A DNA stretch of 64,000 nt, taken from contig SUUK01000005.1 in NCBI GenBank assembly GCA_015062535.1, positions 998-64,997 of the forward strand, in the 5' to 3' direction. Source of the stretch: Alphaproteobacteria bacterium. GTDB taxonomy: Bacteria; Pseudomonadota; Alphaproteobacteria; RF32; CAG-239. The notes below the pieces were generated by a model, which did no database searches, was not told the DNA's origin, and worked only from the letters and a program-made list of their open reading frames with translations. Shown piece by piece: positions 15,816 to 57,443 of this stretch (positions are counted from its first letter, which is position 1; each line of letters begins with the position of its first letter). A program made the translations under genes and the position numbers.

Positions 15816-15832
15816 TCTTTTATGCCATTATG

Positions 15833-16822: not shown

Positions 16823-16943
16823 AAAATCCCCCAATGTTTTATTTCTGTTCTAAATTAAAACAAAATACTTTTTATTTATGAAAAGATACTTTATAGAGAT
16901 ATATATAAGATTCATAGGATAAAAAAACAAGAAATATTATAAG

Positions 16944-20590: not shown

Positions 20591-20878
20591 ATGGCTATTG
20601 ATAATGAGGCTGTAAAACAGATTGCATATTTAGCAAGACTTGGTGTTGACGAAGACAAGCTAGAAGAAACACAGCAAGAATTTAATAAAATTTTGGCATG
20701 GGTTGAAGAATTAGGTGAAGTAAATACTGACGGTGTTGAACCTTTGGTTTCTCCTCATGATGAACCTATATTTTTACGTGAAGATGAAGTTGTTGAAGGT
20801 TGCCAAAGCCAAAAAATATTAGCCAATGCACCTCAAAAAGAATTTGGATATTTTGCTGTACCTAAGGTTGTGGAGTAG
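20591..20878 (+). CDS. gatC: Asp/Glu-tRNA amidotransferase subunit C
   Basis: 95 aa, conserved GatC sequence, immediately upstream of gatA and gatB. Confidence 0.9.
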
Positions 20879-20882
20879 TGAT

Positions 20883-22337
20883 ATGACAGATTTAACAAGA
20901 TTAACTATTAGCGAATCTCTTGGTAAGCTAAGAGCAAAAGAAATTTCTCCTGTTGAACTTACTGAAGCTTATATTAAAAAACTAGAAGATAATAAAAAAT
21001 ATAATGCATATGTTACTATGTCTGAAGATGTGGCTTTAGCACAAGCAAAAGAATCTGAAAAAAGATATATGAATGGGACTAACAAGGCTTTAGACGGCAT
21101 ACCTCTTGGTATTAAAGATTTGTTCTGCACAAAGGATATTAGAACAACTGCATGTTCTAAAATTATTGATAATTTTGTACCACAATACGAATCTACTGTT
21201 ACACAAAACTTGCTTAATGATGGAGCTGTGTTTTTAGGCAAACTTAACTTAGATGAATTTGCTATGGGTGGTAGTAATGAAACAAGTTATTTTGGCCCTG
21301 TTGTTAACCCTTGGAGTAAAGATGTTAAATTAGTTGCTGGTGGTAGTTCTGGTGGTTCTGCTGCGGCTGTTAGCGCTAATATGTGTGCTGGCGCAACCGG
21401 TACTGATACCGGTGGTTCTATTCGTCAACCATCTGCATTTTGCGGTGTTACAGGTATTAAGCCTACATATGGTAGATGTTCTAGATATGGTGTGATTGCA
21501 TTTGCTTCATCTTTAGACCAAGCTGGACCTATTTGTAAGGACGTTAGGGACTGTGCTTTGATGCTAAATAGCATGGCAGGATTTGATGCAAAAGATGCAA
21601 CTTCTTCTAGTGTTAATGTACCTAACTTTGAAAGCTTTATCGGGCAAGATGTTAGGGGGTTAAAAATCGGTATTCCTAACGAATATAGACCAGATGGATT
21701 AAACGAAGAAATTGCCGGATATTGGGATAAAGCAATTAGTATATTAAAAGAAAAAGGCGCTGAGATTGTAAATATTAGCCTTTCTCATACAAAATATGCT
21801 TTACCTTGCTATTATGTAATTGCTCCTGCTGAAGCTTCTTCTAACTTGGCTAGATATGATGGTATTAGATATGGTAATCGTGTTAATGGCAGAAACATGG
21901 AAGAGCTCCATATCAATACTAGAACAAATGGATTTGGTAAAGAAGTTAAGAGAAGGATTTTAGTTGGTACATATGTGCTTTCTGCTGGTTTTTATGATGC
22001 ATATTATTTGAAGGCTCAAAAAGTTAGACGTCTTATTAAAAACGATTTTGATGAAGCCTTCAAAAAATGTGATGTTATTTTAACTCCAACTAGCCCTATT
22101 GAAGCGTTTGCTATTGGCGATAAAAAGATGAATGAAAGCCCTATTAATATGTATTTGAATGACGTATTTACAGTATCTGTTAATTTAGCTGGACTTCCTG
22201 CAATGAGCTTACCTATTGGGTTATCAAAAAATGACCTTCCTTTGGGTATGCAATTTATTGGTAAAGCATTTGATGAAGGTACAATATTTAAGGCTGCTTA
22301 TCAATTAGAGCAAAGCGTAAATTTTAAGAGGATATAA
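20883..22337 (+). CDS. gatA: Asp/Glu-tRNA amidotransferase subunit A
   Basis: Amidase signature [11 protein letters not shown]...[12 protein letters not shown]. Start set at MTDLTRL, 5 nt after the gatC stop; the track ORF has a 19-codon extension. Confidence 0.9.
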
Positions 22338-22340
22338 GAA

Positions 22341-23804
22341 ATGGCAGAGTATATTTTAGAATCATCTAATGGTGAAAAATGGGAAATAATTTGTGGCTTG
22401 GAAATCCACTGCCAAATTATATCTAAATCAAAAATTTTTAGTGGTGCTTCTACATCTTTTGGTGAAGATGCAAATGAGTGCGTTTCTTTTGTTGATGTGG
22501 CTATGCCTGGTATGCTTCCTGTTCTTAATAAAGAATGTGTTAAACAAGCTGTTAAAACAGGACTTGGGCTAAATGCTAAGATTAATAAATATTCTGAATT
22601 TTCACGCAAAAATTACTTTTATCCTGACCTTCCTCAAGGATATCAAATAACTCAAGAAAAACACCCTATTATTGGAGAGGGAAAAGTTTTTGTTGACTTA
22701 AGCGATGGTAGTGTAAAAGAGATTGGTATTGAAAGAATCCATATTGAACAAGATACTGGTAAATCTATCCATGATATTGACCCATCAAGAAGTTTTATTG
22801 ACTATAATCGTGCCGGCGTTGGTTTGATGGAGATTGTTACTAAACCTGATTTTAGAAGTCCTGAAGAAGCTGGTGGCTTTTTAAGAAAACTTCGCTCTAT
22901 TGTTAGATATCTTGGAACTTGTGATGGAAACATGGATGAAGGCTCTATGAGATGTGATGCCAGTGTTTCTATTAGAAAAATTGGTGAAGAAGGATTTAGA
23001 CCAAGATGTGAAATTAAAAACGTTAATAGCGTTAAGTTTGCTATGCAAGCAATAGAAGCTGAAGCTAAAAGACAATTAGAAATATATGAAAATGGCGGTA
23101 GTTTTGAACAAGAATCTCGTCAGTTTGACCCTAATACTTGTACTACAAAATTTATGCGCAAAAAAGAATATGCTCATGAGTATAGACAATTTCCTGAGCC
23201 TGATTTGCCACCGCTTATATTGTCTGATGAATATATTGAGCAAATTAGAAGCGAACTTATTGAGCTTCCTGATGCTAAGAAGAAGCGCTATGTTGAAAAC
23301 ATGGGGTTAACAGCATATGACGCTAGTGTTATTTGTGAAAACAAAGAAGTTGCTGAGTTTTTTGAAGAAGCATCTTTTGGACATGATGCTAAAAAGGTTG
23401 CTAACTGGCTTATGGGTGACTTTTTTGCTATGCTTAATAAGAAAAACGTTGATATTAAAAACTCACCTGTTTCTGCTAAAAATTTAGGTAAACTTGTTGA
23501 GCTTATATCTAAAGATGTTATTTCTGGCAAGATTGCAAAAGATGTTTTTGAGATTATGACAGAAACAGGTGGCGACCCTGAGGTTATTGTCGAAGAAAAA
23601 GGATTAAAACAAGTAACAGATACATCTCAAATTGAGGCGATTGTTGATGAGATTATTGCAAGCAATCCTCAAAATGTTGAAAACTATAAGGCTGGTAAAA
23701 ACAATTTGCTTGGTTGGTTTGTTGGACAAGTTATGAAACAAACTCAAGGGAAGGCTAACCCAGGTGTTGTTAATAAACTTTTGAAAGATAAGTTAGATAA
23801 CTAG
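22341..23804 (+). CDS. gatB: Asp/Glu-tRNA amidotransferase subunit B
   Basis: 487 aa with a conserved GatB N-terminus ([13 protein letters not shown]). Confidence 0.9.
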
Positions 23805-28598: not shown

Positions 28599-30044
28599 AT
28601 GGGAAATAAACCTGAAATAATAGATGAAAGTGGCGACAATTACAAATTTGGTTTTGTAACTGATATTGACACTGAAATTGTACCTAAAGGGTTAAATGAA
28701 GATATTATTAGGCTTATTTCTCAAAAAAAAGAAGAGCCTCTATGGTTATTGGAATCGAGATTAAAAGCCTTTCGTAAATGGCAAACTATGGTTGAGCCGA
28801 CATGGGCTAAGGTTAGTTATGACAAGATAGACTACCAAGATTTGTACTATTACTCAGCACCCAAACAAAAAGTTGCTCCTCAAAGTTTAGATGAAGTTGA
28901 CCCTAAACTAATTGAAACATATAACAAGCTTGGCATTCCACTAAAAGAGCAAGAAGTTTTGGCGGGTGTTGTTGCGGTTGATGCGGTGTTTGATAGTGTA
29001 TCTGTTGCTACAACATACAAAGCACAACTTAAAAAACATGGAGTTATTTTTTGTTCTATTTCTGAAGCGGTTAAGGAATATCCTGACTTAGTTAAAAAGT
29101 ATTTAGGAAGTGTTGTACCTTATACTGATAATTTTTTTGCGGCGCTTAATTCTGCGGTGTTTACTGATGGGAGTTTTGTATATATTCCTAAAGGGGTTAA
29201 ATGCCCAATGGAATTATCTACTTATTTTAGAATTAATGCAAAAAATACGGGGCAATTTGAGAGAACGCTTATTGTGGCTGATGAGGGGAGTTATGTTTCT
29301 TATTTAGAGGGATGCACTGCTCCTCAAAGAGATGAAAATCAGCTCCATGCGGCGATTGTTGAGATTTTTGTTCATAAAGATGCGGAAGTTAAATATTCTA
29401 CGGTGCAAAACTGGTATCCAGGGGATAAAGATGGTAAAGGTGGTGTTTATAACTTTGTAACCAAAAGGGCACTTTGTGATGGTGAAAACTCAAAGGTTTC
29501 TTGGACACAGGTGGAAACAGGTTCGGCTGTTACTTGGAAGTACCCTTCTTGCGTATTAAAAGGTGATGGGGCTAAAGGGGAGTTTTATTCTGTTGCTCTT
29601 ACTAACAATCATCAACAAGCTGATACTGGTACAAAGATGATTCACTTAGGTAAAAATACGAGTTCTAGGATTATATCTAAAGGAATTTCAGCAGGATTTT
29701 CTGACCAAACATATAGAGGACTTGTTAAGGTTGCTAAAGGCGCAAGTAATGCAAGAAATTACTCACAATGTGATAGTTTGTTAATTGGAACTACATGTGG
29801 TTCGCACACCGTACCTTATATTGAAAATGGGTCTAAAAGTGCAATATTAGAACACGAGGCAACTACTTCTAAAATTAGTGATGAGCAATTATTTTATTGC
29901 AAGCAAAGAGGTATTGATGAAGAAGATGCCGTTGGCTTGATTGTTAATGGATTTTGCAAAGAGGTTATGCAAAAGTTACCTATGGAATTTGCTATTGAGG
30001 CAACAAAGCTAATTGAAATTTCGCTAGAAGGAAGTGTGGGGTAA
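28599..30044 (+). CDS. sufB: Fe-S cluster assembly scaffold SufB
   Basis: 481 aa with conserved SufB/SufD fold sequence. No sufC or sufD is adjacent. Confidence 0.85.
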
Positions 30045-39106: not shown

Positions 39107-41359
39107 ATGAAGTTAAAATTAACAGGGATTTCATTGCTAGCATTGTCTATTTGCTCTAATGCTATGGCTCAAGAAATAGTTAGCAATATTGATATATCAG
39201 GACTTCAAAGAGTGGAAAAAGAAACTGCTCTTTCTTATGCTGGTATTAAAACAGGAAGTGTTGTATCTTCTGAGGAATTAAACAATGCTTTACGTAGATT
39301 GTATGATACTGGATTGTTTAGTGATGTAAGTTTTGACACCAAAGGAAACACTCTTGTTATCAATGTTACTGAGAATCCAGTAATTGGAGTTAGAGCTTTT
39401 GATGGTAACAATAAAATTGATGATAAGATTTTAGAATCTGAAGTTCAATCTCAACCTCGTTCTGTTTTTAGCAAAGCCAAAGTTCAACAAGACGTTCAAC
39501 GTATTTTAGATGTTTATAAAAGAGCTGGACGTTATGGTGTAGAAGTTGAACCTAAAATCATTAAAAAATCTGACAACAGAGTTGATTTGATTTTTGAAAT
39601 TGAAGAAGGTCCTGAAGCTAAAATTGACACCATTAACTTTATTGGTAACAAACACTATACAGGTAAAGATTTACAAAATGAAATCATGAGTAAAGAAAGC
39701 CGTTGGTATAGACTATTTTCTAGCGCAGAATCTTTTGATAAAGAAAAAATGAATTATGACCAAGAGTTATTGAGACGTTTTTACAATAGCCATGGTTATG
39801 CAGATTTTGCAGTATTGTCTGCCATTGCTGAATTGTCTCGTGATAAAACATCTTTTGTTTTAACATTTACTATTGATGAAGGAAAACGCTATAAAGTTAG
39901 CAATATAAAAATTAACTCTAATGTGGCAGATATTGACCCTAACCAATGGTATGAGTTTGTTACTTTTAACAATGGCGATTGGTATAATTCTGATGAAGTT
40001 GAAAAAACAGTTAATGCTTTAACTGAAGAATTATCTCGTAAAGGTTTTGTGTTTGTTGAAGTATCCCCAACTATCAACAAAGACAGAGAAACTGGTAAAT
40101 TAAGTGTTGTTTTTGATATTAAAGAAAATGCAAAAGTATTTGTAAATAGAATTAATATCACTGGTAATACTAGAACTCTTGATGAAGTTATCCGTAGAGA
40201 ATTTAGAATTGCAGAAGGCAATGTATTTAATGCTTCTAAGATTAGAGAATCTAGACGTAATGTTGAAAGATTAAACTTCTTTAGCAAGGTTGATATTGAC
40301 TCTGAAAGAGTTGGTTATGATAAGGCAGATATTAACGTTAATGTTGAAGAGAAGTCTACTGGATATTTCAACGTTGGTGTAGGATATTCTACTGTTAATG
40401 GTGCACTTATTAGAGCTGGTATTACAGAAAATAACTTCTTAGGAAAAGGACAACAAGTAAGCTTGAATGCTGGCATGTCTCAACGTTCTAATGATTATAG
40501 CTTTAGCTTTACTGAACCTTATTTCTTAGATAGAAGATTAAGTGCTGGTACTGACTTATTCTACCAAACAGAAGATTACCAAGACGAAAGTAACTATGAC
40601 ATGGATACAATGGGTGCTAGAATTCGTTTTGGTTGGAACTACACAGACAACTTAAGTCAATATGTTCGTTATACACTTAAACAAGATGAAATTAAGAACG
40701 TAAATAGCGCTTCTAAGTATATTAAACAAGAAGAAGGCGAATCTATTGACTCAGTTATCGGTCAAACAATCGTTTATGATAAGAGAGATAATTTCTTGAA
40801 ACCACGTGAAGGTTACTACTTGTCATTTGGTAACGATATCTCTGGTCTTGGTGGTGATGATAAGTACTTAAAATTTGATGCTAAAGCATATAAATTCTAT
40901 ACATTATCTGACCATTATACATTTAAGTTCTTCATCAATGGTGGATATATCACAGGATATGGAAACGAAGATGCTAGACTTGCTCAAAGATATTTCTTAG
41001 GCGGTAATACTATGAGAGGTTTTGATACTGGTGGTATTAGTGCTAGAGATAAAGCAACCAAAGACGCTTTGGGCGGTAACTGGATGGTATGGGGAGGTGC
41101 TGAGCTTGCATTCCCACTTGGATTGGATGAGCTTGGTATTAGAGGTAGAACATTCGTTGATATTGGTACAACAGGTAAACCTGACAATATTGACAAAGCT
41201 GATGTTGACTACTCTTCTAGTCCTCGTGTTGCAGTTGGTTTCGGTTTCGAATGGACTTCTCCAATGGGTAAAATTGATATCGACTTCGGTTTCCCAATTG
41301 TTAAAGAAGACTACGATGAAACAGAAGTATTCCGTTTGAACTTTGGTACAAGTTTATAA
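39107..41359 (+). CDS. bamA: outer membrane protein assembly factor BamA
   Basis: 750 aa with a signal peptide, POTRA repeats and a C-terminal beta-barrel ending ...FRLNFGTSL. Confidence 0.9.
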
Positions 41360-41373
41360 TAAAGGAAATAACA

Positions 41374-42387
41374 ATGGCTGATAAAATTTTTTATGAATAC
41401 AGCGGACCAAAAAACTTAAAAGAAATTGCTGAAATTGCTGATGCAGTTTTGGTTGATGAAAGTAAGGCAAATGAGCAGATAGAAAATATCTGCTCTATTG
41501 AAAGTGCTGGTCGTGAAGATCTTTGTTTCTTTTATGATAAGAAAAACAAAGATAAAGCTAAAACAATTAAATCTAAAGCTTGTGCAACTACTGAAGAATT
41601 AAAACACTTAATTCCTGAAGATGTTGTAGTTCTTATTGTTAAAGACCCTAAGCTTTCTTTTATTAAACTACTTCATGCTTTTTATAGGGAACATGAACAT
41701 GAACCAAAAATTGAAGATAGCGCAAGAATTTCTCCTTTAGCAAAGATTGGTAGCGGGTGCTATATTGGTCATAATGTTGTGATTGAAGATGATGTTGTGA
41801 TTGGCGATAACTCAGTTATTGAAGCAAATGCTTTTATTGGCAGAGGTTGCCAAATTGGAAACAACTGCAAAATTGCAAACAATGCTAGCATATCTTATTG
41901 CTTAATGGGTAATGATTGTTATATCTATACCGGTGCTAGAATTGGGCAAGATGGTTTTGGTTTTTCTGTTGTTGAAGGAAAACATAAACGCATTCCTCAA
42001 ATTGGCAGAGTTATCATTGGTAATGATGTTGAAGTTGGTGCTAATGCTTGTATTGATAGAGGGGCTCTTGATGACACAATTATTGGTGATGGATGCAGAA
42101 TTGATAATTTAGTTCAAGTTGCACATAATGATAAAATTGGTAAATACTGCATTTTGGTTGCCCAAACAGGTATTGCAGGTAGTTGTACTTTTGGCGACTA
42201 TGTTGTTTGTGGTGGACAAACTGGATTTGCAGACCATTTAAATGTTGGCAGTGGAGCTCAAATAGGAGCACAATCTGGTGTTATGCGTGATATTGAACCG
42301 GGAGCTATTGTGATGGGAACTCCTACTGTTCCATTTAAGGACTTTATGCGCCAAGTTGCGTTCTTGCAAAAAAATAGTAAAAAGTAA
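41374..42387 (+). CDS. lpxD: UDP-3-O-acylglucosamine N-acyltransferase
   Basis: Left-handed beta-helix hexapeptide repeats, in bamA-lpxD-fabZ order (no skp between them). Confidence 0.85.
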
Positions 42388-42405
42388 TTAAGGAGACTTA
42401 AAAAA

Positions 42406-42858
42406 ATGTCTGAAGAAGTAAAAGTGTATAATATTGAAGAAATTATGAAAATGTTACCACATAGATACCCATTCTTGTTGGTTGACCGCTTGGAAATTGA
42501 AGTTCCTGGTGAAAAGGGTGTTGGCATTAAAAATGTAACAATGAATGAAGAATTTTTTCAAGGTCACTTTCCTAACAATCCTGTAATGCCTGGTGTATTA
42601 CAAATTGAAGCTATGGCGCAAACAGCTGGTGCTGTTACTATTGCTCAAGACGAAAACTATGCAAACACATCTCGAAGTGTTTTGTTTATGGGTGTTAATG
42701 ATGTTAAATTTAGAAAACAAGTTAAACCTGGCGACCAACTAAGAATGCATGTTGAAAAAATCAAAGCTCGTCGCAATATTTTCGTTTATAAAGCAGTGGC
42801 TATGGTGGATGGTCAAGTTGCATCTGAAGCAGAACTTACAGCTATGATTGTAGATTAA
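42406..42858 (+). CDS. fabZ: 3-hydroxyacyl-ACP dehydratase FabZ
   Basis: Contains LPHRYPFLLVDR...GHFP..PVMPGVL. Confidence 0.9.
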   Translation: MSEEVKVYNIEEIMKMLPHRYPFLLVDRLEIEVPGEKGVGIKNVTMNEEFFQGHFPNNPVMPGVLQIEAMAQTAGAVTIAQDENYANTSRSVLFMGVNDVKFRKQVKPGDQLRMHVEKIKARRNIFVYKAVAMVDGQVASEAELTAMIVD

Positions 42859-42893
42859 TTTTAAAAAAATACTATTATTTGCTATTGAAAAAA

Positions 42894-42927
42894 TTAGAGA
42901 TAGGATTTATCTTATCTCTAATTTTTT
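42894..42927 (+). terminator. fabZ terminator (9-bp stem ttagagata/tatctctaa + T6)
   Basis: Hairpin followed by tttttt between fabZ and sufS. Confidence 0.65.
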
Positions 42928-42939
42928 AAGGAATAAGAA

Positions 42940-44157
42940 ATGTTTGATGCGCAAAAAATAAGAAATGACTTTCCTATTCTTCAAGAAAAGATTGAAGGAA
43001 AGCCTAATACATATCTTGATACGGCTGCCTCTGCTCAAAAGCCTGAGGTTGTAGTTAATCGTATGGTTAAAGCATATTTGGAAGAATATGCAAACGTGCA
43101 TCGTGGTAGTTATTTTTTATCTGATAAATCTACCGAAAACTTTGAAGAAGCTCGAAAAATTGTACAAAAGTTTTTTAATGCTAAAAAAACAGAAGAGATA
43201 ATCTTTACTCGTAATGCAACAGAGGGTATTAACCTTGTTGCGGCAACATATGGTGCTAAAAATTTAAGGGAAGGTGATGAGGTTTTATTATCTAGAGCAG
43301 AACATCATGCCAACCTTGTTACTTGGCAACAATGGGCATTAAAAACAGGTGCTAAATTAAAGTACTTTGACCTTGGTGAAGATGGTAGTTTTGTTTTAGA
43401 AAACTTTTTAAAAGAGCTATCTAGCAAGACAAAGATTGTGGCTGTTACTGCTATGTCCAATGTATTGGGAACAATTTTTCCAATTAAAGAGATTTGTAAA
43501 AAAGCGCATGAAGTGGGGGCAGTTGTTTTAGTTGATGCTTGCCAATATGTTGTACATAAAAAAGTTGATGTAGCTGATTTTGATTGTGACTTTTTAGTGA
43601 TTTCTGGTCATAAAGTTTATGGTCCTACTGGTATTGGTGTTTTATATGGAAAATACGAGCTATTAAATGATATGCCTCCTTATCAGTATGGTGGTGATAT
43701 GATTGAAACTGTTTCTTTTGAAAAAACAAGTTTTGCTTTGCCTCCGGCTCGTTTTGAGGCTGGAACTCCTGCAATTGTTCAAGCAATTGGTCTTGGTGAA
43801 GCATTAAAGTATTTAATGAAGTTTGACTTTAATGAAATTGAAGAATATGAAAGTATGCTCACATCTTATATGACTGACAGATTGCTTGAAATTAAAGGAT
43901 TAAAAATACACGGAATGGCAAAACAAAAAGGTGGAGTTTGCTCTTTTAGTATAGATGGAATCCATCCTCAAGATTTAGCTTTTATTTTAGGTAAAGAAGG
44001 TATTGGCGTTAGAACTGGGCATTTTTGCGCAGAGCCTTTGGTTTTATCTCTTGGATATAAATCTTTAACAAGAGCATCTTTGGGAATTTATAGCAATAAA
44101 GAAGATATAGATATTTTTATTAAAACATTAGAGAAAGCAAAAACTTTTTTAGCATAG
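42940..44157 (+). CDS. sufS: cysteine desulfurase SufS
   Basis: Class V aminotransferase with PLP Lys in SGHKVYGPTGIG, and the SufS-type catalytic region containing the active-site Cys (RTGHFCAEP). Confidence 0.85.
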   Translation: MFDAQKIRNDFPILQEKIEGKPNTYLDTAASAQKPEVVVNRMVKAYLEEYANVHRGSYFLSDKSTENFEEARKIVQKFFNAKKTEEIIFTRNATEGINLVAATYGAKNLREGDEVLLSRAEHHANLVTWQQWALKTGAKLKYFDLGEDGSFVLENFLKELSSKTKIVAVTAMSNVLGTIFPIKEICKKAHEVGAVVLVDACQYVVHKKVDVADFDCDFLVISGHKVYGPTGIGVLYGKYELLNDMPPYQYGGDMIETVSFEKTSFALPPARFEAGTPAIVQAIGLGEALKYLMKFDFNEIEEYESMLTSYMTDRLLEIKGLKIHGMAKQKGGVCSFSIDGIHPQDLAFILGKEGIGVRTGHFCAEPLVLSLGYKSLTRASLGIYSNKEDIDIFIKTLEKAKTFLA

Positions 44158-44168
44158 TAGATTGAACG

Positions 44169-44600
44169 ATGACAGAAGAAAATAAAATAAATGAAATTGA
44201 TGAAAATGAAGCTCAATTATTGCAAGCAATGAGTGTTGATGATGAATTGCCGGTTTATAAGGCTTATGCCGGTGAAGAGCTCATCAACAAGTCTGATATT
44301 GCTAAGATGTTTGATATTGTAGAAGCTATAAAAACAGTTTATGACCCTGAGATTCCTATTAATGTGTATGATTTGGGACTTATTTATAAAATTAATCAAG
44401 AAGATGGGGGAAATTTGCATATTGATATGTCTTTAACTGCTCCTGGTTGCCCTGTTGCAGGAGTTCTTCCTCAACAAGTAGCTGATGCTGTTGCAACATT
44501 AGATGGTGTTGGAAAAGTTGAAGTAGAAGTTGTTTGGGAACCTGCTTGGACTCTTGAAAGACTTAGTGAAGATGCTAGAGTAATGCTTGAGATGATTTAA
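44169..44600 (+). CDS. sufT: DUF59/MIP18-family Fe-S assembly protein (SufT-like)
   Basis: DUF59 core (VYDPEIPINVYDLGLIY...LTAPGCP). Confidence 0.7.
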   Translation: MTEENKINEIDENEAQLLQAMSVDDELPVYKAYAGEELINKSDIAKMFDIVEAIKTVYDPEIPINVYDLGLIYKINQEDGGNLHIDMSLTAPGCPVAGVLPQQVADAVATLDGVGKVEVEVVWEPAWTLERLSEDARVMLEMI

Positions 44601-44612
44601 AAGAGGTAAAAA

Positions 44613-45020
44613 ATGAGTATTGAAACATTGATTGATGACTTTTCTTTTTTAGAATCGTGGGAAGATAGGTATAAATATCTTATTGAACTTGGCAATAAAT
44701 TACCTCATTTTAGTGATGATAAAAAGCTTGATGAGTGGAAAATTGTTGGTTGCCAATCTCAAGTGTGGATTATTCCTCATTTAGAGGCTAATCCGATATA
44801 TTTTGAAGGCGATAGCGATGCTATTATTGTTAGAGGAATTATTGCTGTTGTTTTTGAAATTTTTAAAGATAAATCTGCACAAGAGATTTTAGATATTGAT
44901 GTTGAAGAAATTTTTGATAAGATAGGTTTAAGAGAACATATAACCCCTAATAGACGAAGTGGAATGCAGTCTATGGTTGATAAGATTAGATACTATGCTG
45001 CACAAACTCTGAAGGATTGA
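44613..45020 (+). CDS. sufE: sulfur acceptor SufE
   Basis: 135 aa with the active-site Cys in VGCQSQVWI. Confidence 0.8.
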   Translation: MSIETLIDDFSFLESWEDRYKYLIELGNKLPHFSDDKKLDEWKIVGCQSQVWIIPHLEANPIYFEGDSDAIIVRGIIAVVFEIFKDKSAQEILDIDVEEIFDKIGLREHITPNRRSGMQSMVDKIRYYAAQTLKD

Positions 45021-45021
45021 G

Positions 45022-46227
45022 ATGAATATTCACGAGTATCAAGCAAAAAGCATTTTTAGTAAATTTGGAATTAATGTGCCTAATGGTTTTATTGCTTATA
45101 CTCCCAAAGAAGCCAAAGAAGCGGCATATAAGATTAGTGAAATTGGACCTTGGGTTGTAAAAGCACAAATTCAAGCTGGCGCTCGTGATGAAGGAAAATT
45201 CTCTGATAAAAGAGCGGGAAAAAAGGGCGGAATTAGGCTTTCTAAATCCATTGAAGATGTATATTCTAATGCAAATGAAATGCTTGAGAATATGTTGATT
45301 ACAAACCAAACAGGAGCTAAGGGGCGTTTGGTTAGTAGAGTGTATGTTGAAGAATATATAAAATCTGTAAATAAATTTTATGTTGGTCTTACGATAGATA
45401 AAGAAACTGCATCTGTTGTTTTGATTGTATCTTCTGACTATGACAAAGATAATGAAGATATTATCAATGCTATGGAAACACCGAATAAACTTTTTAAGGT
45501 TAATCTTGGTTTGCAAAGAAAAATTGATAAAAAACAAGCCTCTGAGGTTTGTGATTTTATGCAAGCAAAGGTTTTGGTTGGCGACATGAAAAACTTTATT
45601 GATAGCCTTTTGAATGTCTTTTATACATATGATGCCACCGCTGTTGAAATTAACCCTATTGGTGTTACAAAAAACGGGCAAATTTGGGCTTTAGATGCTA
45701 AAATTTGTTTTGATTCTAATGCTCTTTATAGACACAAAGATATTACTTCTATGGTTGACGAAGCAGAGATTGAAGAAAGAGAATTAAAAGCCTTAAAATT
45801 TGGTTTCCAGTACAAGGAATTGGATAGCGGTATTGGTATTATTGTAAATGGTGATGGATTGGCTCTTAATACAATAAATGAAGCGAAAAACATTAATCTT
45901 GATACAGCATGCTTTTTGAACCTAAAAGGTGGTGTTGATAGAGATAAAATTGCGGAAAGCATAAAACTTATTATGACGAATCCAAAAGTTGATGGTATTT
46001 TTATTAATATTTTGGGTGGTTTCTTGCGTTGTAATTTGATTGCAGATGGAATATTGAATGTTGCAAATGATTTAGGGCTAAATATACCTTTAATTGTTCG
46101 CTTCGAGGGAACTAATAAAGATGAAGCAACCGAGATACTTAATAAATCAAATTTATCTTTTTTGATTGCTGAGGACACAGCATCTGGTTTGAATATGCTA
46201 AAAAGAGCAATTGAGGAGGATTTCTAA
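45022..46227 (+). CDS. sucC: succinyl-CoA synthetase beta-subunit homolog with degenerate ATP-grasp glycine-rich motif
   Basis: N-terminus MNIHEYQAKSIF matches SucC; the canonical QxHAGGRGKAGGVK is replaced by QIQAGARDEGKFSDKRAGKKGGIRL. Confidence 0.7.
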   Translation: MNIHEYQAKSIFSKFGINVPNGFIAYTPKEAKEAAYKISEIGPWVVKAQIQAGARDEGKFSDKRAGKKGGIRLSKSIEDVYSNANEMLENMLITNQTGAKGRLVSRVYVEEYIKSVNKFYVGLTIDKETASVVLIVSSDYDKDNEDIINAMETPNKLFKVNLGLQRKIDKKQASEVCDFMQAKVLVGDMKNFIDSLLNVFYTYDATAVEINPIGVTKNGQIWALDAKICFDSNALYRHKDITSMVDEAEIEERELKALKFGFQYKELDSGIGIIVNGDGLALNTINEAKNINLDTACFLNLKGGVDRDKIAESIKLIMTNPKVDGIFINILGGFLRCNLIADGILNVANDLGLNIPLIVRFEGTNKDEATEILNKSNLSFLIAEDTASGLNMLKRAIEEDF

Positions 46228-47093
46228 TGTCTATTTTAATAAACAAAAAAACTAAAGTTTTGGTGCAAGGTATTACAGGTACTCAAGCGTCTTTCCACGT
46301 ACAAAGAGCATTAAAATATGGCACTAAAATTGTTGCAGGTGTTGTGCCAAGTAAAAAAGAAGATTTTCATTTGGGAATTCCTGTTTTTGAAACAGTAAAA
46401 GAAGCAAAAGAAAAAACAGATGCTACTGCTTCTATTGTTTTTGTTCCTGCAAAGTTTGCAAAATCTGCAATTTTGGAAGCAATTGATGCCAAATTAGAAC
46501 TTGTTGTAGTTATTACTTCGGGTATTCCTGTTGGTGATATGATGGAAATAAAACATAGGCTCCAAAACTCAAAAACAATACTTATTGGCCCGAATACTCC
46601 AGGTGTTATTACTCCAAATGAAGCTTATATGGGAATTTTTCCTGATAATATTCATAACTCAGGTAATATTGGCATTGTTTCATCGTCTTCTACTTTGACT
46701 TATGAAATAGTTTTGGAGATGAATAAGATTGGTCTTGGTCAATCTACTGTTGTTGGTTTGGGTGATGACTTTATTGTTGGTTCTTCTGTGGGGAGTATTA
46801 TTGAAAAATTCAACAAAGATGCAAAAACTAAAGCTAGCGTTATCATAACTGGAATTTATGGAAATGATGAAACTGAGATTATTGAAAAATACTCTAAATT
46901 AAAGAACAAAAAACCGGTTATTGCATTGATTATTGATGACAACACTGCTCTTTCTGAAGCAAATAGTATTGCAGAATTAATTTGTAAAAATAGTTTTGAT
47001 GTAAGTGACAGAAAAAACAAATTAAGAGATGCTGGCATTATTGTTGTTGACAACATTACAGATTTGAAAAAAGAACTGCTTAAAGTATGTTAA
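46227..47093 (+). CDS. sucD: succinyl-CoA synthetase alpha-subunit homolog lacking the phosphohistidine loop
   Basis: N-terminal CoA-binding fold is conserved (KVLVQGITGTQASFH). The MGHAGAII catalytic-His segment is absent and the C-terminus is divergent. Confidence 0.7.
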   Translation: MSILINKKTKVLVQGITGTQASFHVQRALKYGTKIVAGVVPSKKEDFHLGIPVFETVKEAKEKTDATASIVFVPAKFAKSAILEAIDAKLELVVVITSGIPVGDMMEIKHRLQNSKTILIGPNTPGVITPNEAYMGIFPDNIHNSGNIGIVSSSSTLTYEIVLEMNKIGLGQSTVVGLGDDFIVGSSVGSIIEKFNKDAKTKASVIITGIYGNDETEIIEKYSKLKNKKPVIALIIDDNTALSEANSIAELICKNSFDVSDRKNKLRDAGIIVVDNITDLKKELLKVC

Positions 47094-47809
47094 AAAGAAT
47101 AAAGAAAATTATTGATGCAATACTTCCACCAAGATGCTTGATGTGTGGTGGAATTGTTAATTCGGATAATAGTTTATGTAATGAATGTTTTTCTAAGGTA
47201 AATTTTGTTAGTAGACCATATTGCAAACATTGTGGTGTTCCTTTTGCTAAATCTGTTAGTGATGGCGAGGCTCTTTGTATTCACTGCCTTAACCCTAAAA
47301 ATAATGATAAATTTAGACTTTTACGTTTTGCGGTGGAATATGATGAATTTTCTAAAAAAGCTATTTTAGATTTTAAGTTTTTAGACCATGTTGAAAACAG
47401 AAAACTGCTTACAAATTGGCTTAATATGGCAGGTAATGATATTTTTGATAGTGGTGTTGACTTGATTATTCCTGTTCCCTTGCATTTTACAAGACTTGTA
47501 AAAAGAAAATACAATCAATCGGCAATATTGGCAAAAGAGCTTTCTAAAATTCGCAATATCAGTGTTGATTATAAAAGTCTAAAAAGAAAAAGAATGACCA
47601 TTCCTCAGGTTTTATGCTCTGGTAAAGAACGATTAAAGAATGTAAAAAATGCATTTGAAGTTGTCAATGCTGAAAATATTAAAGGAAAGAGAATCGTTTT
47701 GATTGATGATGTTTACACAACTGGTGCAACATTGAGAGAATGCGCGCTTGTTTTACTTAAAAGTGGAGCTAAGTCTGTTGATGCACTAACGATTGCTAGA
47801 GTTTGCTAG
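47087..47809 (+). CDS. comF: ComF/GntX-family phosphoribosyltransferase-domain protein
   Basis: N-terminal 4-Cys zinc finger (CLMCGG...CNEC...CKHCG...CIHC) plus a C-terminal PRTase motif (VLIDDVYTTGATL). Confidence 0.8.
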   Translation: MLKRIKKIIDAILPPRCLMCGGIVNSDNSLCNECFSKVNFVSRPYCKHCGVPFAKSVSDGEALCIHCLNPKNNDKFRLLRFAVEYDEFSKKAILDFKFLDHVENRKLLTNWLNMAGNDIFDSGVDLIIPVPLHFTRLVKRKYNQSAILAKELSKIRNISVDYKSLKRKRMTIPQVLCSGKERLKNVKNAFEVVNAENIKGKRIVLIDDVYTTGATLRECALVLLKSGAKSVDALTIARVC

Positions 47810-47813
47810 TAAT

Positions 47814-47842
47814 AAAAAAAGCAGGCAAGTCCTGCTTTTTTT
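47814..47842. terminator. bidirectional terminator aaaaaaagcagg-caagt-cctgcttttttt
   Basis: Perfect 6-bp stem with A7 and T7 flanks, between comF (+) and the small minus-strand ORF. Confidence 0.75.
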
Positions 47843-48080
47843 ATTTAACACTTAAGAGCTTTTCGTATTTTCTTAAAATGCATTCAGCAATTCCAGCTAA
47901 ATCATTTTTATCACTGCTCTCAAAAGAACGCTCTTTAACTAGCATTTCTGACGTTAGCTCAAAAACATATCCTGTATAATCTCTTAGACAGTTTTTTTCT
48001 TTTTGTTTTTTAGCTTTTGTTTCAAAAGCGCTGTTGCGAATAACTTCGGTAAGTTCTTCTGTTTTCTTTTTTTTGAACAT
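47841..48080 (-). CDS. hypothetical small protein (79 aa), downstream of tolC on the same strand
   Basis: ORF starts 22 bp after tolC and has a terminator at its 3' end. Confidence 0.45.
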   Translation of the reverse strand: MFKKKKTEELTEVIRNSAFETKAKKQKEKNCLRDYTGYVFELTSEMLVKERSFESSDKNDLAGIAECILRKYEKLLSVK

Positions 48081-48102
48081 TCTTTTTGCCTTTTATTTTA
48101 AT

Positions 48103-49473
48103 TTAATCAATTGATGTTGATAACCATTTTCCAGATGTTTCTTTATATTTATCATCTGCATCATATAAATCAACATTTAAATTCAAATCTTTAGCGGTTA
48201 ATTTACCCATTGCTTGAAGAAGTGCTAAACCTGAAACATAGTAATCATGACGAGTTGTTACTTCTTCTACTTCTGAATTGAGTAAATATTGATATTGGTT
48301 TAATACATCAAGCACTGTTCTGTTTCCAAGAGCCTGTTCCTCTCTTACACCATCTAAAGCAACTTGGTATGCTTTGATTTGTGATTTAACAGATTTGATT
48401 TTTGCTTTGTTTGCACTTAAATATTCCCAATAACTTGTGATATCTGAAAGAAGTTTATCTTCTGCATTTAGCAAATCTTCAGAGGCTTGTTTTTGGTAAT
48501 ACTTACTTTGACGAAGTTTTGCACGGCTTGCACCAGCATTGTATATTGGCATTGAGAAGTTTACACCAAATTCTACAGAATTGTTGGTTGGATTTTTATC
48601 ATATGCATAGTTTTCGTTTTTTAATCTACCAGCTGATGCATATGCATTAATTGATGGCAATAGGTCACCTCTTGATGTTTTTACATCATAATTTTTGGCT
48701 TTCAATGCGTGTTTTGCGGCAGATACAGAATAGTTGTGTGCTTTTGCATATTCCATAGCCTCTTGCATGCTATTTGGGAACATTTTTTCGATATCTTTTG
48801 GATCTATTATATCTTTTGGAGCAATTCCTATTACTTGAAGATATATTGCTTTTGATGCTTCTAGGTTGCCTTCTGCAGATATTCTTTGTGATTGAGCTGA
48901 TGCGTAACTTGCTTCGGCTTGTGATACGTCGGTTGTTGTAACCTCTCCTACTTTGAAACGTTCACGAGTTTCATCTAGTTCTTTTTTTAGTAATTTTTCA
49001 TTATTTTTTTGGAGTTTTACAATAGCTTCGTCACGTAAAACATCTAGGTATGCGATTGAGGCATTGAGCAAAACATTTTGTTCTGTTGCCATAAGGTTTG
49101 CCTTTGATGCTTTTACATAGCTTTTTGCTGAACTAACAGAATTTACTGTTTTTAAACCTGAAAACAAAGGTTGTGAAATTGTTGCAGATAGTGTTCTTGT
49201 GTAGCCATCTACTGGTTTTTGGTGAACACCATTTACTCTTGAGTTTGTGTTTACCTTGTTTTCTACATATGCGCCATCTATTGATAATGTTGGACGATAT
49301 CCTGATTTTGCAAGCGCTACATTTTCATCTACGGCACGAGATGCGGCTCTTGCTGATTTTAATACTGGATTGTTTTCGTATGCTTTGGCAAGTGCTGTTT
49401 CTAAAGTATCGGCATATGCAGGCATACTTGCTGTTAAAGCAACCAAAAGCGCTAATATACTGTTTTTTCTCAT
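48103..49473 (-). CDS. tolC: TolC-family outer membrane efflux protein
   Basis: Signal peptide (ILALLVALTASMPAYA) and two TolC repeat halves. Start set at MRKNS with SD agaggg; the track has a 9-codon extension. Confidence 0.8.
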   Translation of the reverse strand: MRKNSILALLVALTASMPAYADTLETALAKAYENNPVLKSARAASRAVDENVALAKSGYRPTLSIDGAYVENKVNTNSRVNGVHQKPVDGYTRTLSATISQPLFSGLKTVNSVSSAKSYVKASKANLMATEQNVLLNASIAYLDVLRDEAIVKLQKNNEKLLKKELDETRERFKVGEVTTTDVSQAEASYASAQSQRISAEGNLEASKAIYLQVIGIAPKDIIDPKDIEKMFPNSMQEAMEYAKAHNYSVSAAKHALKAKNYDVKTSRGDLLPSINAYASAGRLKNENYAYDKNPTNNSVEFGVNFSMPIYNAGASRAKLRQSKYYQKQASEDLLNAEDKLLSDITSYWEYLSANKAKIKSVKSQIKAYQVALDGVREEQALGNRTVLDVLNQYQYLLNSEVEEVTTRHDYYVSGLALLQAMGKLTAKDLNLNVDLYDADDKYKETSGKWLSTSID

Positions 49474-55487: not shown

Positions 55488-57443
55488 TTAAGCTATTTTT
55501 GAAAATAGTTTTTGTTTACTAATAATATCTTGTTTGGTTAGGCTTGATTTTAAGAATGGAGATGTTTCTATTAAATCAAGCGGAGTGCCGTCGCTTTCTA
55601 TTTGGCCATCTTTTATTACTATCACCCTATCTGCAAGAGCTATTTCTGTTGGATTGTGTGTTACAAGTAACACTGTTTTATTTTTTGCTTTTTCTTTTAG
55701 GGTTTTCATAATCTTAAAGCTTAACACTTGATCTAAACCAGTGGTTGGCTCATCTAATATCATTATTGGTCTATTGATTAAGAATATACGAGCAAGAGCT
55801 AAACGTTGACGTTGACCTCCTGATAGTGCGCGTCCGTCTTGTCCTATCCTATGGAATAAACCTTCTTTGAAGTTAGAAATATCTTCTGTAAGACCTGCAG
55901 AATCGAGAGCTTTATTTAATTCCTCAATACTTGCATTTTCTTTGAAATACTTTAAGTTATAGAGCAATGTTTGGTCAAAGAAGTGAACGTTTTGGTCAAC
56001 AAAGGCTATTTGTTTATTAATTTCTTCATCTTTTAAGGTTGTTAAATCCTTATTGCCTAATTTTATTAGACCTGATGTTAGCTCGTAGTCGTGACGAATT
56101 AAGCTCATCAAAGTTGTTTTACCCTCGCCTGATGTGCCGGCAATAACAGTTATTTTGCCAGAGTTAATTGTGGTTGAAATGCCTTTTATTACATCATTTC
56201 CACGTTCAACATCTTCTTTTTCTGCACCAAAGGTTGTTATATCTTTGATTTTTGGATAGGAAAAACGAACATCTTTTAAGGTTATAGTATTATCTTTTGT
56301 GGTTAGTTTTTGAGGACCTGTTTTTCGCTCTAGTGCAAGTGGGGTGTGCAATAATTTACTTGCATCTAAATAATTATTGCGTGCCTCTAATATATTTATA
56401 TATGTATAAGCATAACTTCTAAACCTCATCCTTATACTATTTGTTGCTGTGGCAATTAAAGAAAAACGACCGATATCTCCTGTTTCTATTATATCACGTA
56501 TTGCGAAAACACAAACTATTGAAGAAAACAACAAATCTGAAATTATTCTTAAAGTAGATTCATTCATTATTTTTAGATTAAATTCTTTTATTAGCACTTT
56601 AAATACTTTGTTATTACGACTTAAAATATTTTTATATTCTTTATTTTGCGATAAAGCGTCTTGAATAAGAGGAGAATTTTGCAATGTATCTCTATTTTGT
56701 TTATCGGTATGTGATTTTATTATTTGATTTTTTTGCATCACTACTCTTTTTATTTTTTGCATATATGATGATATTTCTATGTATAATATAGAAATAAAGG
56801 TAAATAGAACAACAAATTTTGCTGAAATAAAAAACAAACTAAACAATGCCATAAATGCAATAATAAATTCTCTAGTCACAGCTATTATATCTCTTAATAT
56901 GTTAGATATAGCTGTATTTAATCGTGATGAGATAGATGATAGTGTCGCAGGATTGTTTATTGTAAAAAATGCTCTGGGTTTATTTACAATGTTTATGTAA
57001 TTTGAAGCAAGATTGGTAGAAAGCACTGCTTCATTTAATTTTTGTTGATTATAAAATAATTTGGCTAAAAGAAATTCACCTAAAAAATCTCTTAACTTGC
57101 GTATAGAATAACATAATATAAAAATTAGTATTGCGCTTTTGCTACCTGTGGCAACGGCAGGTAACGCATTATATACAAGCATAGACGCTACGGGAATCAA
57201 TCCTTCTGCAACTCCTGACAAAAAACTTGTTAAAATATATTTATGAAAAATTGATTTGCATTGTGGTGATATTTCTTTATATGATTTTATAACTAATGAA
57301 AAAGATGATATTTCTTTGTCATCATCTTTTACATTTATTCTTTTTAAAAAGTTATAAAGTTTTATAATTCTCTCTTTCTCAAACTTTAAAAAACCTATAA
57401 AATTGTTTTTAGAGTTTAATTTTGATGATTTTGTGTGTGGCAT
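55488..57443 (-). CDS. ABC exporter, fused TMD-NBD (paralog A)
   Basis: N-terminal half has about 6 TM helices. The C-terminal NBD carries GTSGEGKTT, LSGGQRQR, ILDEPT and the H-loop. Its 3' ~850 bp is about 95% identical to paralog B. Confidence 0.85.
   Translation of the reverse strand: MPHTKSSKLNSKNNFIGFLKFEKERIIKLYNFLKRINVKDDDKEISSFSLVIKSYKEISPQCKSIFHKYILTSFLSGVAEGLIPVASMLVYNALPAVATGSKSAILIFILCYSIRKLRDFLGEFLLAKLFYNQQKLNEAVLSTNLASNYINIVNKPRAFFTINNPATLSSISSRLNTAISNILRDIIAVTREFIIAFMALFSLFFISAKFVVLFTFISILYIEISSYMQKIKRVVMQKNQIIKSHTDKQNRDTLQNSPLIQDALSQNKEYKNILSRNNKVFKVLIKEFNLKIMNESTLRIISDLLFSSIVCVFAIRDIIETGDIGRFSLIATATNSIRMRFRSYAYTYINILEARNNYLDASKLLHTPLALERKTGPQKLTTKDNTITLKDVRFSYPKIKDITTFGAEKEDVERGNDVIKGISTTINSGKITVIAGTSGEGKTTLMSLIRHDYELTSGLIKLGNKDLTTLKDEEINKQIAFVDQNVHFFDQTLLYNLKYFKENASIEELNKALDSAGLTEDISNFKEGLFHRIGQDGRALSGGQRQRLALARIFLINRPIMILDEPTTGLDQVLSFKIMKTLKEKAKNKTVLLVTHNPTEIALADRVIVIKDGQIESDGTPLDLIETSPFLKSSLTKQDIISKQKLFSKIA

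Follow-up and report, generated by a model that had tools for sequence, protein, structure and literature searches.

In succinyl-coenzyme A (CoA) synthetase (SCS), as published structures of the E. coli and pig enzymes have established, His246 of the alpha subunit (SucD) carries the phosphoryl group and swings between two sites ~35 Å apart. Glu208-alpha and Glu197-beta are its partners, one at each site, two helix dipoles hold the phosphate, and Asn199-beta and Asp213-beta are Mg ligands. Here we describe a member of this family that lacks the phosphohistidine. It is encoded by two adjacent genes, which we call sucC′ (SCS beta derivative with ATP-grasp and CoA-ligase domains; 45022..46227, + strand, 401 amino acids (aa)) and sucD′ (SCS alpha derivative; 46227..47093, + strand, 288 aa), in a stretch of 64,000 nucleotides (hereafter the window) of contig SUUK01000005.1 from an Alphaproteobacteria assembly (GCA_015062535.1). 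An initial annotation of the window had read the genes as a degenerate SCS pair within a suf-comF operon, and had offered two explanations: reductive decay in progress, or a neofunctionalised ATP-grasp/CoA-binding pair.

Among described systems, the closest is canonical SucCD, as found in E. coli (PDB 1SCU and 2SCU) and in alphaproteobacterial mdh-sucCDAB operons of the type at locus L026. Gene order (beta, then alpha), protein lengths and domain composition (ATP-grasp_2 and Ligase_CoA in beta; CoA_binding and Ligase_CoA in alpha) are alike, and so are the fold (TM-scores 0.83–0.92), beta residues K46, E99, E197, N199 and D213, and the CoA-domain residues that canonical SucD conserves. In contrast, His246-alpha, Glu208-alpha, GIGGD, SRSG and NGAG are all altered in the window pair, and whereas canonical SucCD sits with mdh and sucAB, the window pair lies behind sufS-sufT-sufE. 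Other members of the NDP (nucleoside diphosphate)-forming acyl-CoA synthetase superfamily (MtkAB, citryl-CoA synthetase, ATP-citrate lyase, ADP-forming acetyl-CoA synthetase and FdrA) share domains and fold with the window pair but give weaker matches and are far more distant from it than SucCD is. To our knowledge, the characterised members of this superfamily also use a phosphohistidine, so they do not explain a His-less form.

Two further comparisons are conceptual. Pseudoenzymes, which are a concept and not a family, resemble the window pair in that catalytic residues are lost under purifying selection and ligand-binding features appear to be partly kept; sucC′ and sucD′ combine both properties, with inactivity itself only predicted. 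The mitochondrial NFS1-ISD11-ACP complex, in which a cysteine desulfurase is associated with a carrier of a CoA-derived (4′-phosphopantetheine) acyl group, is a precedent, by analogy only, for coupling Fe-S biogenesis to acyl-CoA status. It has no sequence or structural relation to SucC′D′, and the association is experimental in mitochondria but hypothetical for the window pair. The literature searched, which was incomplete in coverage, yielded no account of an SCS without the His, of an SCS pseudoenzyme or of a suf-sucCD cassette, which is absence of evidence only, nor any of a physical or functional interaction between SCS and Suf proteins. The pair is a real, conserved and, apparently, so far undescribed variant of a very well-known enzyme, and its new operon partner is suggestive.

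Results

SucC′ and SucD′ are members of the SCS family

Alignment to hidden Markov models (HMMs) matched the SCS beta and alpha domains, with SucC′ matching PF08442 (7e-46) and PF00549 (7e-14), and SucD′ matching PF02629 (9e-27) and PF00549/PF13607. Comparison with the E. coli SCS chains using phmmer gave E-values of 3.6e-72 for SucC′ and 5.4e-70 for SucD′, and structural alignments gave identities to the E. coli chains of ~34% and 43–44%, respectively. AlphaFold models built on clade alignments had a predicted local distance difference test score (pLDDT) of 84.8 for SucC′, with template modelling scores (TM-scores) of 0.83–0.92 to solved SCS beta chains, and a pLDDT of 85.1 and a predicted TM-score (pTM) of 0.83 for SucD′, with TM-scores of 0.83–0.88 to solved SCS alpha chains. 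We conclude that, by descent and fold, the pair is a member of the SCS family. The CoA-binding Rossmann N-domain that the initial annotation recognised in the SucD-like protein also appears to be intact: besides the PF02629 match, all canonical positions conserved at ≥90% are kept within residues 1–153, with the exception of G44.

Both proteins scored below the cut-offs of the curated NCBIfam models, SucC′ with 355.8 against 370 (NF001913) and 332 against 375.55 (TIGR01016), and SucD′ with 302.1 against 336 (NF004230) and 304.3 against 353.2 (TIGR01019). We have not filed the pair as succinyl-CoA synthetase, because it falls short of these thresholds and, in the alignments described below, lacks the catalytic His, Glu208 and residues of the phosphate site.

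The best fold matches include PDB 9a6e and 9a7l, which are integrative GatB-SucD and SucD-SucC models from cross-linking mass spectrometry. Given the GatB-SucD model (9a6e), SucD has at least one reported partner outside the tricarboxylic acid (TCA) cycle. The window contains gatA and gatB (20826–23804), which do not adjoin the genes described here.

The phosphohistidine machinery of SucD′ is altered throughout the clade

When SucD′ is aligned with E. coli SucD, GKRMGHAGAIIAGG corresponds to SEANSIAELICKNS. His246-alpha aligns to Ile248 of SucD′ (HMMER and one MAFFT run) or to Ala249 (another MAFFT run), and the whole translation contains no His beyond residue 143. The initial annotation was therefore right that the SucD-like protein lacks the catalytic His, but wrong that the segment carrying it is missing: the former phosphohistidine loop (residues 236–258, IDDNTALSEANSIAELICKNSFD; 46932..47000, + strand) matches its E. 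coli counterpart in length and has been substituted rather than deleted. The second catalytic residue has been replaced as well. Glu208-alpha aligns to Gly209 (codon at 46851..46853, + strand), and the motif GEIGG has become TGIYG.

These substitutions are shared by a large set of relatives. A search with the SucD-like protein as query returned 120 protein clusters at 63–100% identity, and a second search, in which two more distant representatives were combined into a profile, added 118 clusters that are 46–52% identical to SucD′ of the window. The catalytic His is absent from all 240 related alpha clusters, down to 46% identity. Its position is occupied by Tyr in 121 clusters and by L, I, V, F or another residue in the rest. 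Tyr is strictly conserved in the 121 clusters that have it, within MGYA(A/S)DIITHG, and the subclade of the window has Leu, Ile or Val, with the consensus GLAPEIICRG. At the Glu208 position, the same 240 members have G (129), K (89) or A (13), and a single one has E.

To define which canonical residues have changed, we took as reference the 48 positions that are ≥90% conserved in 30 diverse His-containing SucD proteins. The clade keeps 35 of these, fixes replacements at two (Ser for G154 of SRSG and Asp for G179 of GIGGD, each in 100% of members) and varies at 11. The phosphohistidine machinery (the SRSG helix start, GIGGD, GEIGG, AG-TAP, His246, G248 and A249) accounts for 12 of the 13 changes. 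Accompanying motif changes are GIGGD to GLGDD and SRSG to S(R/S)SS, and A249 is replaced by Asp or Glu in ~98% of members. The former His loop is the fastest-evolving part of sucD′, with a regional ratio of nonsynonymous to synonymous substitution rates (dN/dS) of 0.37 versus 0.07–0.11 elsewhere in the gene, and part of it (residues 239–256) is the sole low-confidence stretch of the SucD′ model (pLDDT <50).

Two candidate replacements for the His were rejected. The semi-conserved Cys of EIIC is unsuitable as a catalytic or persulfide residue, because several members and the sister subclades have S, R, Y, F or T instead. Tyr as a phospho-acceptor at this locus is ruled out as well; strictly conserved in the 121 sister-clade clusters, it does not occur at this position in the window's own subclade.

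SucC′ retains predicted ATP-grasp ligands but is altered in the glycine loop and phosphate site

The glycine-rich loop of the SucC′ ATP-grasp domain (residues 51–73; 45172..45240, + strand) reads QAGARDEGKFSDKRAGKKGGIRL, and is modelled with a confidence of ~70–74. The initial annotation took this loop as a sign of degeneration. The loop does read as stated, and the GGRGKG motif has changed, but its 10 extra residues are normal for alphaproteobacterial SucC: a canonical SucC from this class, encoded in an mdh-sucC-sucD-sucA-sucB-lpdA operon (L026) whose alpha subunit retains MGHAGAI, has a loop of exactly the same length. The argument from the loop was largely misled, because its reference was E. 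coli rather than alphaproteobacteria. An insertion as a new feature of SucC′ is ruled out by the L026 loop, and Blastocystis SCS carries a shorter, 7-residue version of the extension. The true change is from GGRGKG to GARDEG in the window and to G(A/S)R(D/A/H)xG in the clade, such that G53 is replaced by A or S, G55 by D, A or H, and K56 is variable.

Across the beta subunit, where our canonical reference set comprised 8 sequences only, K46, R54, E99, E197, D213, N264, G265, G320, G321, R324 and C325 do not vary in any of the 120 members, and N199 is retained in 113 of them. In 105 of the 120, Asp or Glu has taken the place of A266 at the start of the second phosphate-binding helix, converting NGAG to NG(D/E)G. 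E107 and the EGG motif have been lost, and PANFLDVGGGA is replaced by a fixed TACFLNLKGGV.

Taken over both subunits, the former phosphate site carries acidic or Ser replacements (alpha G154S, G179D and A249D/E; beta A266D/E). As far as the residues allow us to judge, the losses are targeted, with the phosphoryl shuttle removed selectively and the CoA-domain residues and Mg-nucleotide ligands of the ATP-grasp domain remaining under constraint. Read in this way, the loss of the His, of Glu208-alpha and of the phosphate pockets makes the canonical mechanism structurally impossible. The expectation in the initial annotation that the pair is unlikely to be a canonical SCS agrees with the predicted effect of altering the phosphohistidine, Glu208-alpha and both phosphate-binding helix N-termini.

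The pair is under purifying selection

Both genes are intact open reading frames (ORFs), as initially annotated, and ORFs of constant length are maintained across 240 alpha-type and 120 beta-type clusters at 46–100% identity. Between the window and a relative whose proteins are 91–96% identical (L007), dN/dS is 0.046 for sucC′ and 0.108 for sucD′, and nine neighbouring genes have values of 0.03–0.07. An independent pair of loci (L021 and L027) gave 0.077 for sucC′ and 0.049 for sucD′. In the single scan of genome contigs, L007 was the only close relative recovered, and the remaining hits were canonical Pelagibacter and further loci.

These data refute the suggestion of reductive decay in progress. 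The His is absent from every one of the 240 clusters, the most distant of which are 46% identical, dN/dS is 0.05–0.11, and the models are confident. High dN/dS, which the initial annotation named as a sign of relaxed selection, was seen in neither comparison. We conclude that, outside the replaced phosphohistidine machinery, strong purifying selection acts on both proteins, with the SCS folds kept. That dN/dS is as low as in housekeeping neighbours also argues against a merely tolerated copy.

A crude neighbour-joining tree grouped all 22 members that were sampled in a single clade, apart from His-containing SucD. Other SucD-like representatives outside this clade are also His-less (P0189, P0206, P0212, P0221, P0224, P0237, P0248 and P0267; loci L023–L025). 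Three of them have Tyr at the position, and none has suf genes adjacent where the context is visible. These lineages are scattered over the tree, which suggests that SCS alpha-like proteins have lost the phosphohistidine on several occasions.

One member of the clade came from a contig of 56% G+C (L030; European Nucleotide Archive ERZ28611088, 1982 bp; member P0123), and it shares the substitutions typical of the clade, with SRSS and GLGDD in its SucD′ sequence, and NGEG and ACWLNVKGG in SucC′; the clade thus reaches higher-G+C organisms. Its SucD′ frame breaks after residue 206 into unrelated sequence, and the contig is probably chimeric or misassembled; the His position and the context are unreadable.

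The pair is part of a conserved sufS-sufT-sufE-sucC′-sucD′ cassette

In the window, sucC′ and sucD′ lie in a one-strand run of genes (39107–47809) that comprises bamA, lpxD and fabZ and, after an 81-nt gap, sufS, a sufT-like gene, sufE, sucC′, sucD′ and comF. Profile matches bear out the suf and comF neighbours named in the initial annotation. SufS (42940..44157, + strand), the first gene of the cassette, scores 546 bits against a cut-off of 475 with TIGR01979 (PF00266, 3e-137); its translation contains both the SGHK (pyridoxal phosphate lysine) and GHFCA (catalytic cysteine) motifs of a SufS-family cysteine desulfurase. The sufT-like gene (44169..44600, + strand) encodes a DUF59/FeS_assembly_P protein (PF01883, 8e-21) that scores 136.6 bits with TIGR02945, slightly below the cut-off of 143.4, and it occupies the identical cassette position in all related loci. 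SufE, the sulfur acceptor of SufS (44613..45020, + strand; PF02657, 2e-43), has a GCQS cysteine motif. ComF (47087..47809, + strand) is of the ComFC/GntX type, with a double zinc ribbon and a phosphoribosyltransferase domain (PF18912, 2e-16; PF00156; TIGR00201, 3e-37).

Junctions between these genes are tight. The TGA stop of sufE is followed, after 1 base, by the ATG of sucC′, with GAAGGA 5′ of this start; the sucC′ stop and sucD′ start overlap as TAATG, with GAGGAGGA upstream of the sucD′ start; and sucD′ and comF overlap by 7 nt (ATGTTAA). The overlaps of start and stop codons noted in the initial annotation thus hold for sucC′/sucD′ and sucD′/comF, but not for sufE/sucC′. Together with the Shine-Dalgarno-like sequences that precede the sucC′ and sucD′ starts, these junctions are consistent with the view that the genes are expressed as an operon. 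A promoter and terminator scan of positions 41300–48200 was uninformative, with counts not above those in shuffled sequence.

Relatives at 65–70% identity (L001–L006) are collinear with the window over 20 kb, so their synteny tells nothing about linkage. The deeper loci, in which SufS is 58–60% and SucD′ 46–48% identical to the window proteins, are more revealing, because the flanks differ. In the window clade, the cassette is preceded by bamA-lpxD-fabZ and followed by comF, with an opposite-strand tolC-like gene beyond it. L027 and L021 have an ADP-dependent kinase (ADP-PFK) gene on the opposite strand downstream, without comF, and type IV pilus/type II secretion system genes upstream (seen in L027 only). 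At L028, rpsD lies upstream, and comF, then an opposite-strand SIS-domain gene, downstream; at L029, hda and an unknown gene lie upstream, and comF, then dsbD, downstream. L020 is a short contig with an uncharacterised ORF upstream of sufE-sucC′-sucD′ and a partial ORF, apparently comF, downstream. The cassette opens with sufS in L021, L027, L028 and L029 too, and all junctions within the five-gene block are ≤10 nt or overlapping in the window clade, L020, L021, L027, L028 and L029. There are thus four distinct upstream contexts and two immediate downstream arrangements, and genes farther out also differ. We conclude that the five-gene block is a conserved unit, with comF as a frequent, not universal, sixth member, and that both flanks vary.

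The nearest canonical SucD that we examined sits in an mdh-sucCDAB-lpdA context and has kept its His. The move next to suf and the catalytic loss coincide in all members seen; intermediates may be unsampled.

A solitary SufB/D-family gene (28599–30044, + strand, 481 aa) lies elsewhere in the window. It is flanked by an M23 peptidase gene and an unknown ORF and has neither sufC nor sufD as a neighbour, so the suf genes of this genome are dispersed. The window also contains a MoxR-type AAA ATPase, DUF58 and UvrD-helicase neighbourhood (14886–19343) that recurs at L027 (17994–20870), ~7 kb from the L027 cassette. Between comF and the TolC-like gene, a small ORF (47841–48080, − strand, 76–79 aa, no Pfam match) is conserved in the window's subclade, with counterparts at L001 (11610–11840), L003 (11618–11848) and L005 (11609–11848).

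Other features of the window

The window is AT-rich (~33% G+C). Eight tandem ankyrin-repeat genes at 148–8712 (+ strand) encode proteins of 252–459 aa that are 55–76% identical to each other and share a near-identical N-terminus of ~40 aa, MSE(D/V)xLExQLxEIIKDxEMAExIKLAKIDMLxRLGVDVNA. GC skew is unusually high in this region (0.44–0.48). Such tandem ankyrin-repeat arrays are typical of host-associated bacteria. Two adjacent paralogues (55488–57443 and 57702–59654, both − strand) encode proteins of ~650 aa, 57% identical, with a C-terminal ABC ATPase domain. The gene at 61582–62478 (− strand) encodes a protein with a zeta-toxin domain (PF06414, 4e-46), and upstream of it lies a 460-aa ORF (59963–61345) with no Pfam match.

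Discussion

A proposed repurposing of SCS

The explanation that we favour is that sucC′ and sucD′ descend from alphaproteobacterial SCS genes and that, in one lineage of uncultured, mostly low-G+C Alphaproteobacteria, the pair moved behind sufS-sufT-sufE and lost its phosphoryl-shuttle chemistry, namely the His loop, GEIGG and both phosphate-binding helix starts. To judge from the residues retained, the two proteins would still assemble as an alpha-beta complex, with binding of CoA or acyl-CoA by the alpha subunit and probably of a nucleotide by the beta subunit. The two sites would no longer be coupled by a swinging phosphohistidine, and hence there would be no net interconversion of succinyl-CoA and ATP. 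Such a complex would be a repurposed module, most likely non-catalytic, or differently catalytic, and would exert its selected function together with the co-translated SufS, SufT and SufE proteins. A possible role would be that of a sensor or adaptor through which cysteine desulfuration or the supply of Fe-S clusters responds to acyl-CoA or energy status. The neofunctionalised ATP-grasp/CoA-binding pair in an Fe-S-assembly operon that the initial annotation had offered as its second explanation fits the data, given a conserved cassette with variable flanks, although the function would be a prediction.

We are fairly confident of the general statement that this is a conserved, phosphohistidine-independent, suf-linked SCS derivative. 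The explanation as a whole, a repurposed suf-linked heterodimer derived from SCS and lacking the phosphohistidine, we consider moderately probable, and a specific accessory role of SucC′D′ in the Suf system is a tentative proposal that we rather doubt. Several points weigh against our explanation. The ATP site differs from the canonical one at G53, G55, E107 and the EGG motif. Genes of unrelated function may share an operon, such that co-transcription is no proof of shared function, and other suf genes are scattered in the genome (the SufB/D-family gene at 28599–30044). The binding of CoA and nucleotide and the formation of a heterodimer are predicted from conserved residues only. Our tree, built by neighbour joining, is crude, the canonical reference set for beta is small (8 sequences), and a canonical sucCD may exist elsewhere in these genomes, our reading of the window's own genome covering 64 kb.

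Alternative explanations

The adjacency to suf could be inherited gene order without functional meaning, in which case the pair would be a pseudoenzyme with an unrelated moonlighting role, for example a protein interaction of an SCS scaffold. The dispersal of suf genes in the genome and the frequent mixing of functions in operons would fit this, as would the existence of non-TCA protein partners of SucD in other bacteria (the integrative GatB-SucD model, PDB 9a6e). However, the five-gene block survives at least 4 independent rearrangements of both flanks at 46–60% protein identity, with junctions of ≤10 nt, and relocation and catalytic loss are both found in every member seen. We consider meaningless adjacency unlikely.

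A second alternative is that the pair is still an acyl-CoA synthetase or ligase that works by another mechanism, either with a different phosphate carrier, such as the Tyr of the sister subclades, or by direct phosphorylation of the carboxylate by the ATP-grasp domain, which is the mode of classical ATP-grasp ligases. The invariance of the ATP-grasp Mg-nucleotide ligands and Glu197-beta, of the succinate-site GG-x-x-RC motif and of N264/G265 in beta, together with the retention of conserved CoA-domain residues and the strict conservation of Tyr at the His position in 121 of 240 relatives (MGYA(A/S)DI), would be expected of an active enzyme of this kind. The window's own subclade, however, has Leu, Ile or Val in place of Tyr; its loop is poorly conserved (dN/dS 0.37, pLDDT <50); several members carry S, R, Y or F in place of the EIIC Cys; and acidic residues are now fixed at the former phosphate-binding spots. 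Moreover, active sites ~35 Å apart, as in established SCS structures, need a shuttle. Another catalytic mechanism is quite improbable in our estimate.

The pair could also be a redundant paralogue, with a canonical sucCD elsewhere doing the TCA job and this copy having drifted to a new or accessory role or being merely tolerated. The window, which covers only part of the genome, contains no second canonical sucCD and no TCA genes, and several independent His-less SucD-like lineages in public data show that divergent copies are not rare. Against redundancy, dN/dS is as low as in housekeeping neighbours, and loop length of the alphaproteobacterial type and the VVKAQI and LDAKI motifs point to alphaproteobacterial descent. 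A full TCA cycle would also be less expected if the organism is akin to anaerobic gut bacteria (an indirect link, discussed below). We judge this explanation to have a low probability.

Decay, with pseudogenes in the making whose ORFs are still open, would fit the loss of key catalytic residues, the AT-rich genome and the hint of a host-associated lifestyle from the tandem ankyrin-repeat genes, but is scarcely credible given constant-length intact ORFs in 240 alpha and 120 beta clusters, dN/dS of 0.05–0.11 in two lineages, many invariant positions and confident models.

Implications for annotation and Fe-S biology

In public databases, relatives of the pair are named ‘MAG: succinate--CoA ligase subunit alpha/beta [Alphaproteobacteria bacterium]’ and, once, ‘[Acetobacter sp.]’ (MAG, metagenome-assembled genome), and two beta-type clusters are annotated ‘acetate--CoA ligase family protein’. 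The ‘succinate--CoA ligase’ labels on this clade are likely to be a systematic mis-annotation. Reconstructions of these widespread uncultured Alphaproteobacteria would credit them with a TCA or substrate-level phosphorylation step that is almost certainly impossible in its canonical form.

An anaerobic metabolism with pyruvate:ferredoxin oxidoreductase (PFO) and [FeFe]-hydrogenases has been described for gut MAGs that bear the names Acetobacter or Azospirillum sp. CAG, at least one of them reported to be without any terminal oxidase (PMC4967309, PMC6431628). Some MAGs with the cassette carry the name Acetobacter sp., and gut MAGs so named have been discussed in relation to the anaerobic ancestry of mitochondria (PMC4967309), although their link to the window organism is indirect. 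If the window organism belongs to this anaerobic group, a full TCA cycle would be less expected and the demand for Fe-S clusters would be high.

Returning to the repurposing that we favour, a more specific proposal is that SucC′D′ is a new accessory subunit of the SufS-SufT-SufE module in anaerobic Alphaproteobacteria, a sensor, adaptor or scaffold that would have kept the CoA/acyl-CoA and nucleotide pockets of the TCA enzyme and would gate desulfuration or Fe-S delivery by acyl-CoA or energy status; we put this forward as speculation that is unlikely to be correct. In a bolder variant, the pair would catalyse a new ATP-grasp reaction using sulfur delivered by SufE. The repurposing hypothesis is open to direct testing with recombinant proteins. 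For enzyme evolution, the clade offers a clean natural experiment, in which the shuttle would have been excised from a two-site enzyme, with the ligand modules still under selection and a new operon partner acquired. If the link to SufS, SufT and SufE is functional, SucC′D′ would be a new component of Fe-S or sulfur trafficking, and gating by SucC′D′, if true, would be a bacterial counterpart, in logic, of ACP-ISD11-NFS1 in mitochondria.

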